IMG/VR virus record: IMGVR_UViG_2923292180_000001
Length of the DNA stretch: 24,956 nt
DNA from: a virus
Lineage: Duplodnaviria; Heunggongvirae; Uroviricota; Caudoviricetes
Direction: 5' to 3' (one strand)
The position numbers were made by a program, and so were the translations under genes. The notes under the pieces were generated by a model. It was not told the DNA's origin and searched no databases. It was given only the letters and a program-made list of their open reading frames with translations. Of this stretch, positions 20-22,653 are shown one piece after another (the first letter of the stretch is position 1; every line of letters starts with the position of its first letter).

Positions 20-1315
20 TTAATTTTTCATTGCTTCGTTATGGGGCATGGTTGGGGCAAACTCGCTTAACTGTGTATTTAACAAAGCTACCTGTGCATT
101 ATTGTTTTCAGACATCCATTTTCCGTATACCTGAAATACCATTTGCGCATCTGCATGGCCCATCTGGTTTGCTATAAATGCCGGGTTAGCACCAGCTGTC
201 AGCGACCAGCAGGCATAAGTATGTCTCGACTGATATGATTTTCGATGGCGGAGTCCGGCACGTTTTATCGCTGCGTCCCACATCTGCCTTATTGAGTCAA
301 CGGTAAAATGGTCACCATAATTTTTTACTCTCGCTGACACTTCAGGTTGAAAAACAAAGGTGCATTTTTGTTTTTCTGTTCTGCCATACTCTCTGAGGTG
401 AACATCAATGATATGCTCTTTGCTCAGTCTCGTTAATGTCATCTGACTCCGGAGAGCGTCGATTGCTGGCTTAATAAGATGAATGACCCGATTGGTTCCC
501 GCCTGTGTTTTTGGTACCGTGAAACGGTCTTTTGCTAAATTTCTCCTGATCATCATTGTTCCATTTTTCAGATCTATGTCCTCCCATCCAAGTGCACACA
601 GCTCACCAGGGCGAACTCCAGTATAAACAGAAACACACCATAAATTTTTTGCTTGCTGATTTCTGCACGCATCGATAAGACGGATAAATTCTTCCCGCGA
701 AAGAGGATCCGGAATGGTTCTTGATTCCTTTAATGGCGAGATCCCCTTAAACGGATTATCTGCCAGGTAACCGTTATCAACACCAAACTGGAACACGGCG
801 TTAAGATTTGTCATGTAATTATTTACAGTTACAGCCGATCTCCCTGGTTGTGTAACAATATAGTTACTTTTGGGGATCTGGTATCCAGTCAGTAACTCTT
901 TACGAACCTCCAGTAATTTTTCTTTATTAATCGATGAGGCAAGATTTTTTTCACCGATTATGCTCAGGATATTTTTGATGACGGCACGGTATGTGTTGAG
1001 TGATGTTTTGGCGACTTCAGTTTCTTTCAGTGCCAGAAATTTTTCAGCCAGTTCTTTTATGGTTAAATCTTGTCGGGCCTCACCAAATTTTTCCAGATTG
1101 CGTGAGGAGGGAAACTGTTTTGCATAGTCGAAAACACCAGTTTTTATTGCGTAACAAACAGAGGAGCGTAGTTCACCTGCAACGCGCCTGTTTTTTGCTG
1201 TGTCAGGAACCCCCAGATTTTCCCTGACTCTTACGTCTTTATAAACAAACCAGATACGTAATTTCCCTCCATGGTTTTCCACGCCTGTCGGATATTTCAT
1301 TTCAACTTCTCTCAT
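20..1315 (-). CDS. Phage-type tyrosine integrase (site-specific recombinase), apparently full length
   Basis: 431-aa ORF at the prophage edge; C-terminal region has the R...H..R...Y pattern of tyrosine recombinases (..SRHTYACW..HADAQMVFQVYGKWM..); an excisionase-like gene lies immediately upstream on the same strand. Confidence 0.85.
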   Translation of the reverse strand: MREVEMKYPTGVENHGGKLRIWFVYKDVRVRENLGVPDTAKNRRVAGELRSSVCYAIKTGVFDYAKQFPSSRNLEKFGEARQDLTIKELAEKFLALKETEVAKTSLNTYRAVIKNILSIIGEKNLASSINKEKLLEVRKELLTGYQIPKSNYIVTQPGRSAVTVNNYMTNLNAVFQFGVDNGYLADNPFKGISPLKESRTIPDPLSREEFIRLIDACRNQQAKNLWCVSVYTGVRPGELCALGWEDIDLKNGTMMIRRNLAKDRFTVPKTQAGTNRVIHLIKPAIDALRSQMTLTRLSKEHIIDVHLREYGRTEKQKCTFVFQPEVSARVKNYGDHFTVDSIRQMWDAAIKRAGLRHRKSYQSRHTYACWSLTAGANPAFIANQMGHADAQMVFQVYGKWMSENNNAQVALLNTQLSEFAPTMPHNEAMKN

Positions 1316-19029: not shown

Positions 19030-19283
19030 TTGTGATATGTAGATGATAATCATTATCACTTTACGGGTCCTTTCCGGTGATCCGACAGGTTACGGGGCGG
19101 CGACCTCGCGGGTTTTCGCTATTTATGAAAATTTTCCGGTTTAAGGTGTTTCCGTTCTTCTTCGTCGTAACTTAATGTTTTTATTTAAAATACCCCCTGA
19201 AAAGAAAGGAAACGACAGGTGCTGAAAGCGGGCTTTTTGGCCTTTGTCGTTTCCTTTCTCTGTTTTTGTCCGTGGAATGAACA
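19030..19283 (+). other. Lambda-type cos site (cosQ-cosN-cosB); cosN 12-nt cohesive-end sequence at 19095-19106
   Basis: ...TGATATGTAGATGATAATCATTATCACTTTACGGGTCCTTTCCGGTGATCCGACAGGTTACG | GGGCGGCGACCT CGCGGGTTTTCGCTATTTATGAAAATTTTCCGGTTTAAGG... is essentially the joined right and left ends of phage lambda; the nu1 ATG follows 189 bp after cosN. Confidence 0.85.
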
Positions 19284-19541
19284 ATGGAAGTCAACAAAAA
19301 GCAGCTGGCTGACATTTTCGGTGCGAGTATCCGTACCATTCAGAACTGGCAGGAACAGGGAATGCCCGTTCTGCGAGGCGGTGGCAAGGGTAATGAGGTG
19401 CTTTATGATTCTGCCGCCGTCATAAAATGGTATGCCGAAAGGGATGCTGAAATTGAGAACGAAAAGCTGCGCCGGGAAGTTGAAGAACTGCGGCAGGCCA
19501 GCGAGACAGATCTCCAGCCACCCGCGCTACGGCATGGGTAA
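19284..19541 (+). pseudogene. nohA: Terminase small subunit Nu1 N-terminal fragment (homology ends near 19520)
   Basis: MEVNKKQLADIFGASIRTIQNWQEQGMPVLRGGGKGNEVLYDSAAVIKWYAERDAEIENEKLRREVEELRQASE is the lambda Nu1 N-terminus; after about codon 79 the sequence departs from nu1 and continues as a J fragment in another frame. Confidence 0.85.
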
Positions 19542-20799
19542 ACGTCTTGGTGCGGCAGATGTGGATAAATGGGCGCTGTATGTCATCGGCCAGTGTTGCG
19601 ACCAGTCGGTGCCGGACGGTTTTGGCGGCACGGAGCCGCGCATCACCTGTAATGCCTGGCTGACCACACAGCGTAAGGCGTGGGATGTTCTCAGTGATTT
19701 CTGCTCGGCGATGCGCTGTATGCCGGTATGGAACGGGCAGACGCTGACGTTCGTGCAGGACCGACCATCAGATAAGGTGTGGACCTATAACCGCAGTAAT
19801 GTGGTGATGCCGGATGATGGCGCGCCGTTCCGCTACAGCTTCAGCGCCCTGAAGGACCGCCATAATGACGTTGAGGTGAACTGGATTGACCCGGATAACG
19901 GCTGGGAGACGGCGACAGAGCTTGTGGAGGACACGCAGGCCATTGCCCGTTACGGTCGTAACGTCACGAAGATGGATGCCTTTGGCTGTACCAGGCGGGG
20001 GCAGGCGCACCGAGCCGGGCTGTGGCTGATTAAAACGGAACTGCTGGAAACGCAGACCGTGGACTTCAGCGTGGGTGCCGAAGGGCTTCGCCATGTACCA
20101 GGTGATGTCATTGAAATCTGTGATGATGACTATGCGGGGATCAGCATCGGCGGGCGCGTGCTGGCGGTGAACAGCCAGACGCGGACACTGACGCTCGACC
20201 GTGAAATCACGCTGCCATCCTCCGGCACCACGCTGATAAGCCTGGTTGACGGGCAGGGTAATCCGGTGAGCGTGGAGGTCCAGTCCGTCACCGACGGCGT
20301 GAAGGTGAAAGTGAGCCGGGTTCCTGACGGCGTTGCCGAGTACAGCGTGTGGGGGCTGAAGCTGCCGACGCTGCGTCAGCGCCTGTTCCGCTGTGTGAGT
20401 ATCCGTGAGAACGATGACGGTACGTATGCCATCACTGCCGTGCAGCATGTACCGGAGAAAGAAGCCATCGTGGATAACGGGGCGCACTTTGACGGTGACC
20501 AGAGCGGCACGGTGAATGGTGTCACGCCGCCAGCAGTTCAGCACCTGACCGCAGAAGTCACCGCAGACAGCGGGGAATACCAGGTGCTGGCGCGCTGGGA
20601 CACGCCGAAGGTGGTGAAGGGGGTGAGCTTTATGCTTCGCCTGACCGTGGCAGCGGACGACGGCAGTGAGCGGTTGGTCAGCACGGCCCGGACGACGGAA
20701 ACCACATATCGCTTCACGCAGCTGGCGCTGGGAAATTACAGGCTGACAGTCCGGGCGGTAAATGCATGGGGACAGCCGGTGCACATACCCATTCGATGA
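19521..20799 (+). pseudogene. Internal fragment of tail tip/host-specificity protein J (about 420 codons), no native start
   Basis: The 455-aa ORF (19432..20799) reads ..PRYGMGKRLGAADVDKWALYVIGQCCDQSVPDGFGGTEPRITCNAW...[12 protein letters not shown], collinear with the central part of lambda J; it begins exactly where nu1 homology stops and ends at a second junction with stf. Confidence 0.85.
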
Positions 20800-21074
20800 C
20801 ATTTGTTTCAGGTGGTTCCAGTGGTGCTCCGGGAAGTGGATCACCTGATTATTCTAAATACAGTGTTAACACTTCTTCTGCAGGCGCTCATACGCACTCT
20901 GTATCGGGTACTGCTGCAAGCGCAGGTGCACACGCATATACTGTCGGTATTGGTGCTCATACGCACTCCGTTGCGATTGGTTCACATGGACATACCATCA
21001 CCGTTAACGCTGCTGGTAACGCGGAAAACACCGTCAAAAACATCGCATTTAACTATATTGTGAGGCTTGCGTAA
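20766..21074 (+). CDS. stfQ: Side tail fibre (Stf) C-terminal fragment, 102 aa, with HxH repeat motifs
   Basis: ..[63 protein letters not shown] matches the lambda Stf C-terminus; the ATG at 20766 lies in J-derived sequence; stop overlaps the tfa start (TAATG). Confidence 0.75.
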
Positions 21075-21649
21075 TGGCATTCAGAATGAGTGAACAACCA
21101 CGGACCATAAAAATTTATAATCTGCTGGCCGGAACTAATGAATTTATTGGTGAAGGTGACGCATATATTCCGCCTCATACAGGTCTGCCAGCAAACAGTA
21201 CCGATATTGCACCGCCAGATATTCCGGCAGGCTTCGTGGCTGTTTTCAACAGTGATGAGGCATCGTGGCATCTCGTTGAAGATCATCGGGGTAAAACGGT
21301 TTATGACGTGGCTTCCGGCGACGCGTTATTTATTTCTGAACTCGGTCCGTTACCGGAAAATGTTACCTGGTTATCGCCGGGAGGGGAATATCAGAAGTGG
21401 AACGGCACAGCCTGGGTGAAGGATACGGAAGCAGAAAAACTGTTCCGGATCCGGGAGGCGGAAGAAACAAAAAACAGCCTGATGCAGATAGCCAGTGAGC
21501 ATATAGCGCCGCTTCAGGATGCTGTGGATCTGGAGATCGCAACGGAGGAAGAAACCTTGTTGCTGGAAGCCTGGAAAAAGTATCGGGTGTTGCTGAACCG
21601 TGTTGATACATCAACTGCACCGGATATTGAATGGCCAGCACTGCCGTAG
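21074..21649 (+). CDS. tfaQ: Tail fibre assembly protein Tfa
   Basis: 191-aa product [71 protein letters not shown]... is nearly identical to lambda Tfa from memory. Confidence 0.9.
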
Positions 21650-21746
21650 GGTAAAACATATAAATTCTATAATTAGATGTATCTCTCCATTTACGGCAAG
21701 GAAGGGGGCTTGGAAGACGTAAAGCATCTCACACCGAGATTATTTT

Positions 21747-22337
21747 TTATATGTCAGGTGTCTGAAGTTTTGCTTTGGCTCTTAAAATGGTTTGCCGCGA
21801 GGTTTTGAATTCCCGGGCAATGGCACTTATACTTACACCTGACTTAATTCGTTCGAATACCACCTGTTTCTGTTCTTCATTTAACACAGGTGGTCGACCA
21901 AAACGTTTCCCTGCGCCGCGGGCTCTTACTATCCCGGAATGAGTGCGTTCAAGTAAAAGGTCTCGTTCAAATTCAGCGACTGCTGAAATTACGTGCATCA
22001 TCATTTTTCCTGTTGGACTGGTCAGGTCAATGCCCCCCAATGCTAAGCAATGCACTCTGATACCTGTTTCGGTCAGTTGTTCCACTGTTTTCCTGATATC
22101 CATTGCATTACAACCAAGGCGATCCAGTTTTGTCACAATCAATTGATCACCACATTTCAGGCGAGCAAGCAACCGGTTAAAACCAGGACGCTCACTGGTT
22201 GCTGCTGAGCCGCTAATGTGTTCTTCGATTATTTGCTGAGGTTTGATTTTAAAACCTGCACTTTCGATTTCCCGGCGTTGATTTTCGGTGGTCTGATCCA
22301 GCGTTGATATCCGACAGTAAGCAAAAATTCGAGACAT
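21747..22337 (-). CDS. pinQ: Serine DNA invertase of the Pin/Gin/Hin family
   Basis: 196-aa product [29 protein letters not shown]... has the catalytic Ser motif (YCRIST) and a C-terminal helix-turn-helix; convergent with tfaQ. Confidence 0.9.
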
Positions 22338-22653
22338 AGTGAGACTCTATACGAAATTGGTGTTCATATCATAATGCATCTCAGAAAATAATTTTGATTA
22401 TTTTTGTGCATATTTGTATGTACACGTTCGAAAATAAACGAATGCGTATGCAACCCCGTAACTTTGGTGAGACCCAAAATCGATTTTGTGAAAAATGGCT
22501 TTAACTCGGTTTGTTTTTCGAGTTCCGGGCGGACTCAAGGAAGAAGAATAGTGTTGCGTGTTATTTTAACCAGATTTCAAGTTGTTTGGTCGTGGAAAAG
22601 TGGAGCAAAATGTTGTTAAAGTGGAAAAATGATAAAAAAGTAAGTTTATTATA

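Follow-up and report, generated by a model that had tools for sequence, protein, structure and literature searches.

Does the short open reading frame (ORF) that ends a decayed side tail fibre gene encode a working fibre-tip protein, or is it what a deletion happened to leave behind? This question is raised by a window of 24,956 nucleotides (the whole stretch of DNA analysed; IMG/VR virus record IMGVR_UViG_2923292180_000001, Caudoviricetes), in which a 102-codon ORF, hereafter stf', occupies positions 20766-21074 of the plus strand and consists of three codons derived from the tail tip gene J followed by Stf codons ~1018-1116. From the way in which strain PK6 and K-12 MG1655 are annotated, the window was identified as spanning a whole Qin-like cryptic prophage of a non-K-12 Escherichia coli. 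We consider it probable, at a little over 80%, that stf' is an inert deletion remnant, a side tail fibre pseudogene whose ORF is open by chance. It belongs to a known kind (a Qin stf remnant with the His-x-His (HxH) tip of gp37/Stf), its sequence was already public, and it is ordinary.

The origin of stf' was determined by a three-way alignment in which the window was compared with L006, where J is intact, and with L005, where the same Qin locus of strain PI12 holds a longer remnant of Stf. The window tracks J to ...GGGGACAGC and then follows Stf from CAGCCGGTGCAC..., and the tetranucleotide CAGC (20773-20776) is the sole sequence common to the J and Stf parents at the junction, a microhomology of 4 bp. 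Across ~4,500 genomes the J matches stop at either 20776 or 20779, Stf matches begin at 20773-20776, and the match to stfR of strain W444 begins at 20773. The start codon of stf' (ATG, 20766-20768) lies 5 nt upstream of the junction and is therefore J-derived DNA, as the sequence-only reading of the window had proposed; it is out of the J frame and in the Stf frame. Measured on the intact J-lom-stfR-tfaR region of strain W444, stf' begins at stfR nucleotide 3050 (codon 1017 of 1116), and ~5.16 kb has been lost, comprising the J C-terminus (~459 codons), lom and Stf codons 1-1016. That the fragment was produced by a deletion joining J to stf was thus borne out. A J-Stf fusion protein was rejected as a candidate, since the truncated J frame (J') stops at 20797-20799, 23 nt beyond the junction.

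The predicted stf' protein (102 aa, with the C-terminal end NYIVRLA) contains five GxHxH boxes, at residues 5 (GAHTHS), 40 (GAHTHS), 54 (GAHAYT), 63 (GAHTHS) and 72 (GSHGHT). Four of the HxH motifs are intact and the one at residue 54 is degenerate; with this qualification, the repeated motifs reported earlier were found as described. The protein passes the Pfam family PF03335 (Phage_fiber; E 4.5e-5, 23.6 bits against a cut-off of 20) and matches the tip of T4 gp37 (PDB 2XGF) over residues 4-102 with an E value of 6.4e-24. The boxes therefore reflect homology and not chance, and their earlier assignment to the metal-binding motif of the gp37/Stf tip holds. At the nucleotide level, stf' differs from the 3' end of the full-length W444 stfR by two mismatches in 298 nt. 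The protein homologue search gave mainly short fragments, and the full-length relatives came from the DNA search.

The alignment with 2XGF (chain residues 142-242, equal to gp37 926-1026; the numbering offset of 784 agrees with the positions that PMC6957217 and PMC5221442 give for H929/H931 and T939) showed which parts of the fibre tip remain. The stf' product keeps the last ascending His box, the entire tip/head subdomain, four descending boxes and the final collar strand. Its variable head segment, the receptor-binding tip (20796-20882, plus strand; residues 11-39), aligns with gp37 932-963 and falls between the His boxes 929/931 and 966/968. The equivalent of collar D10 811-881 is missing, as are the ascending stem (from 882; two His boxes) and ~1000 residues of shaft and virion-attachment domain. 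In gp37, collar D10 comprises 811-881 plus 1010-1026, the stem begins at 882 and the needle holds seven iron atoms (PMC6957217). Full-length StfR has exactly 7 HxH boxes, in agreement with this number of iron atoms; stf' is short of the two most N-terminal, and so of the complete set of three ascending and four descending boxes, and it has neither the complete collar nor both stem strands. No N-terminal fibre domain was found in stf' with Pfam, and the deletion that took lom, the J C-terminus and codons 1-1016 also took the attachment domain and shaft of a functional stf. For gp37, folding with gp38/gp57A is reported for pieces that begin at 785-799 and run to 1026, and the smallest of them include the whole collar and both stem strands (PMC6957217). 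The fold is an intertwined homotrimer, and a descending half-needle would presumably be unable to form the six-stranded stem, and we infer that stf' has no function as a protein.

Further damage was found within the part that remains. In the third retained box (GAHAYT), codon 58 (TAT, 20937-20939, plus strand) encodes Tyr in place of the His equivalent to His982 of T4 gp37, and His occupies this position in K-12, PI12, W444, ETEC-2264, the Mosigvirus AV116 and T4. It is likewise kept in strain NCTC9040 and in P0122, which is the most frequent of the 102-aa variants (at least 1000 contigs), and His58Tyr therefore arose after the J-Stf deletion. In the sister variant P0128, both His residues of that box have become Tyr, and variants P0003, P0007 and P0008 carry in-frame deletions of 6 to 24 residues with their ends within neighbouring His boxes, a pattern that suggests that the repeated GxHxH-coding DNA has slipped or exchanged unequally. 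The iron-binding residues H929 and H931 of T4 gp37 were essential as tested (PMC6957217). The His changes and the box-to-box deletions fit drift, in a lineage that is very young (identity of at least 99.8%).

A second deletion scar lies upstream, at 19518-19520, where codon ~79 of the terminase small subunit gene nohA is joined to J: homology to K-12 nohA stops at ~19520, and homology to W444 J begins at 19518. Strain NCTC9040 has the same J-Stf junction and the same 102-codon ORF, yet retains nohA-A'-W-portal' upstream. Among the 5,426 complete E. coli genomes in which occurrences were counted, the J-Stf junction was present in 91 and both junctions jointly in 39. Decay of the Qin late region was thus stepwise, with the nohA-J deletion later than that from J to stf. 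At the stf locus, other deletions arose independently in K-12 and in PI12, and at least four deletion states of the Qin late region were observed in E. coli (the window; NCTC9040, L002 3085-6345; PI12, L005 3839-5302; K-12, L003), all four of which leave the last ~200 bp of stf and tfaQ intact. In another E. coli lineage, an independent deletion (variant P0014) has J (…PSSGTTLI) running on in frame into the Stf tip at another position (NHTHSV…), which shows that such deletions from J to stf recur.

Under the deletion-remnant reading, an illegitimate deletion between two CAGC tetranucleotides would have removed the ~5.16 kb and joined J DNA to the last ~99 stf codons. An out-of-frame J ATG would by chance have fallen in the stf frame, giving a 102-codon ORF that ends in the native tfaQ overlap, and a subsequent deletion would have joined nohA to J. 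With no attachment domain, shaft or N-terminal collar, and with the descending half of the iron-stapled stem only, the product could not be a tail fibre, and it is gathering damaging changes such as the His-to-Tyr replacement in an HxH box.

The sequence-only reading had also held that the fragment retains a usable start codon, and on paper it does. A Shine-Dalgarno (SD)-like site, GGGCGGT (20753-20759, plus strand), lies 6 nt upstream of the ATG at 20766 in J-derived DNA; it pairs with the anti-SD sequence at -7.2 kcal/mol, which places it in the top 4.4% of the 933 ATGs of the window and makes it stronger than tfaQ's own site. No evidence of expression was found to accompany this signal: a literature search on stfQ/tfaQ expression gave only K-12 single-cell tfaQ/pinQ/ydfK subpopulation markers and single-nucleotide polymorphism (SNP) calls in stfQ/stfR, and nothing for the window's allele. 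An ATGA overlap (20796-20799, plus strand), in which the in-frame Met11 of stf' lies over the TGA stop of the J' frame, could offer a start by termination-reinitiation. Examined for inhibitory mRNA structure, the RNA fold at the stf' start was ordinary in comparison with shuffles (z -0.79).

No promoter-like site was found near stf' in a consensus scan, whose counts were at chance level (the closest plus-strand site, a 9/12 match, is at 19381-19409). A promoter of its own was rejected on these grounds, and transcription would therefore need an upstream source. Between nohA' (the truncated nohA) and pinQ, no terminator-like site was found. Owing to the two deletions, nohA' > J' > stf' > tfaQ (19284-21649) now form a series in which each ORF overlaps the next; the nohA' stop (TAA, 19539-41) lies over the J-frame ATG at 19534 (ATGGGTAA). 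In principle, ribosomes loaded at the authentic nohA start might pass down this chain to tfaQ, and low-level translation of stf' may accompany any transcription of the region.

Some of these observations weigh against an inert remnant. The SD-like site is above average for the window and is joined by the ATGA coupling site. The ORF is still open in most junction-bearing genomes, with the commonest 102-aa variant on at least 1000 contigs, and it is followed at once by tfaQ, a chaperone gene that is intact and conserved. The region is not transcriptionally dead, since under bacteriostatic antibiotics rare subpopulations of K-12 are marked by transcripts of tfaQ, pinQ and ydfK (PMC10522482). In a lineage with an identity of at least 99.8%, an open frame would weigh little either way.

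Of the alternatives, the one that survives best, unlikely as it is, takes stf' to be a working mini-gene: a translated tip module that is folded by co-translated TfaQ and serves infecting or resident phages as a host-range cassette. The SD-like site with an ATG in frame and the native TAATG coupling to an intact tfaQ would suit this view, as would the fully kept head subdomain, whose allele occurs in 622 of the 5,426 genomes, mostly within full-length stf, and is 99-100% identical to the full-length alleles of those genomes. Lambda is also able to recombine with the stf/tfa region of K-12 Qin; recombinants arose at ~2e-6, mainly dependent on Red-beta, through homology of 96% over 657 bp (PMC3945230). 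Against a working mini-gene stand the loss of the ascending stem, two HxH boxes and most of the collar, the His58Tyr change, a junction that is present in no phage record, and the pseudogene call by PGAP. With the attachment domain and shaft also gone and no evidence of expression, the earlier description of an "expressible fibre-tip module" was not upheld.

The proposal that the locus could act as a reservoir for tail-fibre recombination was sustained for one part of it. Comparison with lambdoid stf genes, which the sequence-only reading had named as a check, gave nucleotide identities of 95-97% for the 3' end. Lambda matches window positions 20948-21636 (stf 3' end and tfaQ) at 95%, and the lambdoid phages Turner, 2H10, mEp460 and the PhiR series match at 95-97% from ~20877-20922 to 21700. 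Resident partners for this 3' stf/tfaQ stretch differ among the seven genomes identical to the window, each of which has it once, twice or three times with the locus itself included; the species-wide median is two places per genome. A reservoir role for the stf 3' end and tfaQ, at 95-97% identity, was already known (PMC3945230), and it does not extend to the head segment. To the left of the head, the Stf DNA amounts to 19 bp only (20777-20795), with J' beyond, and the lambdoid phages in the database share homology only from ~20877 rightwards. Were a phage to cross over on the left within J', it would lose its J C-terminus, lom and stf, and essential genes with them. The head segment (20796-20882) was shared by no lambdoid phage in the collection, being found only in the T-even-like AV116 and AV118, and the J-Stf junction was absent from all phage records searched. 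Because the head allele is common in intact stf, stf' adds nothing beyond functional prophages. The recombination substrate appears to be the conserved stf 3' end plus tfaQ (~0.7-0.8 kb, 95-97% identity) and not the receptor-binding head. The sole demonstrated kind of biological relevance of the stf' locus is as DNA, namely as homology for lambdoid recombination.

The coupling of stf' to tfaQ was also analysed. A TAATG stop/start overlap is present at 21072-21076 (plus strand), as previously reported, and a tfa gene lies directly downstream, as for a functional stf. The deletion did not create this arrangement: the same one-base overlap is found in full-length stfR/tfaR and in K-12 stfQ/tfaQ, and it is therefore ancestral and retained. 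The tail fibre assembly chaperone gene tfaQ (21074-21649, plus strand; 191 aa; annotated tfaQ, WP_000885600.1) is intact, matches Pfam Caudo_TAP with an E value of 2.4e-43, and encodes a protein identical to K-12 TfaQ at 183 of 191 residues. Its ribosome-binding site, GTGAGG (21060-21065), is located inside stf'.

It is quite improbable that the stf remnant persists by serving tfaQ, carrying its ribosome-binding site and delivering ribosomes to the TAATG, with selection for TfaQ keeping the frame; in such a case TfaQ might, for example, aid fibre assembly of other prophages or phages. Consistent with this, tfaQ is intact and identical (WP_000885600.1) across genomes with different upstream deletions, the four independent Qin deletion forms (K-12, PI12, NCTC9040 and the window) spare the last ~200 bp of stf along with tfaQ, the SD site of tfaQ is inside stf', and tfaQ transcripts occur in K-12 subpopulations. 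However, deletions sparing the tfaQ ribosome-binding site would look alike without selection, the deletion forms sampled are few, and an SD-led start needs no upstream frame. We know of no host function of TfaQ, and this was also counted against it.

To our knowledge, Qin stf has no PADLOC-type context, which was counted against the weakest of the alternatives, a decoy. It is very unlikely that the tip fragment with TfaQ acts as a decoy or dominant negative that spoils the fibres of an infecting lambdoid (or T-even) phage by co-assembling with its Stf/Tfa or titrating them. In favour of a decoy, many phage Stf/gp37 proteins have nearly the same C-terminal ~70 residues, so that mixed trimers are conceivable, and the open ORF has its coupling to a chaperone gene; against it, there is no evidence of expression, the His-to-Tyr decay speaks against constraint, and side tail fibres are dispensable for lambda plaques, with stf/tfa inactivation even improving growth in soft agar (PMC3945230). 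It is hardly credible that the 102-codon frame and tfaQ are a maintained two-gene unit in which a headed half-needle, by joining or titrating the Stf/gp37 tips or Tfa of infecting phages with these near-identical residues, acts as a dominant negative on side or long tail fibre assembly. If the fragment were made and interfered with fibre assembly, this would be a new kind of prophage-encoded interference; nothing here points to it.

Convergent with tfaQ lies the serine invertase gene pinQ (21747-22337, minus strand; Pfam Resolvase and HTH_7), whose product is identical to K-12 PinQ at 193 of 196 residues. An invertase gene thus stands beside fibre genes, as in Din-type segments (Mu G, P1 C and e14 P). 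No inverted repeats bracketing stf'-tfaQ were found, no AAACCnnGGTTT-type crossover core was present within 20700-22400 (window-wide matches were below chance), and the ORFs of the window included no second tfa or stf as an alternative cassette. An invertible fibre segment was rejected for lack of these three elements.

The setting of stf' is that of the Qin stfQ locus. The gene order of the window, int ... nohA'-J'-stf'-tfaQ-pinQ-ydfK-ydfJ', is the same as in Qin, with stf' between nohA and tfaQ-pinQ-ydfK, and the prophage abuts the truncated host gene ydfJ (from 23673). The integrase gene (20-1315, minus strand) is followed by a Q/lysis/cold-shock block and then by nohA', J', stf', tfaQ, pinQ and ydfK. 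Strain PK6 is 100% identical to the window over 19200-21800. The truncated terminase small subunit (Nu1) gene nohA' (19284-19541, plus strand) has ~79 authentic codons before it runs out of frame into J DNA; it matches positions 1-81 of 164 of Pfam Phage_Nu1 (E 1.4e-48) and carries the PGAP label "terminase small subunit, missing C-terminus". The internal fragment J' of the tail tip protein J (19534-20799, plus strand; ~codons 281-700 of 1159) is read in the J frame from an internal ATG to the stop 23 nt past the J-Stf junction. It contains Pfam Phage-tail_3 and Ig_J, has 94% nucleotide identity to W444 gpJ nt 843-2101 and is labelled by PGAP "TipJ family ... missing N- and C-terminus".

Other features of the prophage were also observed. 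A lambda-type cosN core (GGGCGGCGACCT, 19095-19106) and a perfect 15-nt inverted repeat of the cosB region (19203-19259) persist upstream of nohA', the terminase genes having been lost. The window and PK6 differ by an offset of ~1.26 kb upstream of ydfO, and PK6 alone has an ISKox3 insertion beside ydfK and an internal stop in pinQ, neither with a counterpart in the window. The left arm of the window (integrase, excisionase and an exonuclease remnant) is unlike the left end of K-12 Qin.

The locus has been annotated in different ways. RefSeq/PGAP marks just 20868-21074, as an incomplete "tail fiber protein" pseudogene, and the exact 102-aa sequence appears in GenBank as "phage tail protein" (EEW8811837.1, EGI11150.1 and END8248875.1). 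For evolved MG1655 populations, recurrent "nonsynonymous SNPs" have been described in stfQ, stfR and tfaD (PMC9945972); instead of selected mutations, these may be the outcome of mis-mapped reads or of gene conversion between fibre remnants that are paralogous. The finding has little import beyond a tidy annotation. It illustrates how a cryptic prophage decays through deletions at microhomologies, with chance ORFs as a by-product, and how inconsistently gene callers name such ORFs: GenBank submissions call this DNA a phage tail protein, RefSeq a pseudogene. Of a decayed fibre locus, moreover, the stf 3' end with tfa, and not the head, can still serve lambdoid recombination.

Compared with T4, the HxH boxes align one-to-one with those of the gp37 tip (2XGF), to which a longer Qin remnant is homologous at E 7.7e-89, and the two systems have in common their dependence on a chaperone gene directly downstream. 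The reported folding minimum of gp37 is 785/799-1026, whereas stf' has the equivalent of 926-1026 only. Compared with full-length StfR, a protein of 1116 aa with attachment domain, shaft, collar and seven HxH boxes, stf' represents the final 9%; in W444 stfR-tfaR as in the window, the fibre gene is coupled by TAATG and followed by the tfa-pin-ydfK module.

K-12 stfQ (b1547) has the same neighbours as stf' (nohA upstream; tfaQ, pinQ, ydfK and ydfJ' downstream) and the same one-base overlap with tfaQ, and its last ~68 codons are nearly identical to those of the window. The end-points of the deletions are not shared: K-12 has nohA (189 aa) joined to Stf (320 aa), whereas the window has nohA' (79), J' (420) and Stf' (99). 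The head-domain allele of K-12 StfQ differs from that of the window, and StfQ has His where the window has Tyr58. The assay of De Paepe et al. (2014, PLoS Genet, PMC3945230) was performed on K-12, and exchange of the receptor-binding head was not its measured quantity; the lambda-homologous K-12 Qin stretch that it concerned is retained in the window (95%, 20948-21636). Outside the lambdoid phages, the T-even-type gp37 of AV116 (Mosigvirus; L004 195-3326) and AV118 carries the window's head allele and one extra His box. These phages match window positions 20776-21061 with 77.6% nucleotide identity and 85% amino acid identity over the C-terminal region, and the AV116 match is an instance of the known exchange of tail-fibre tips among unrelated phages.

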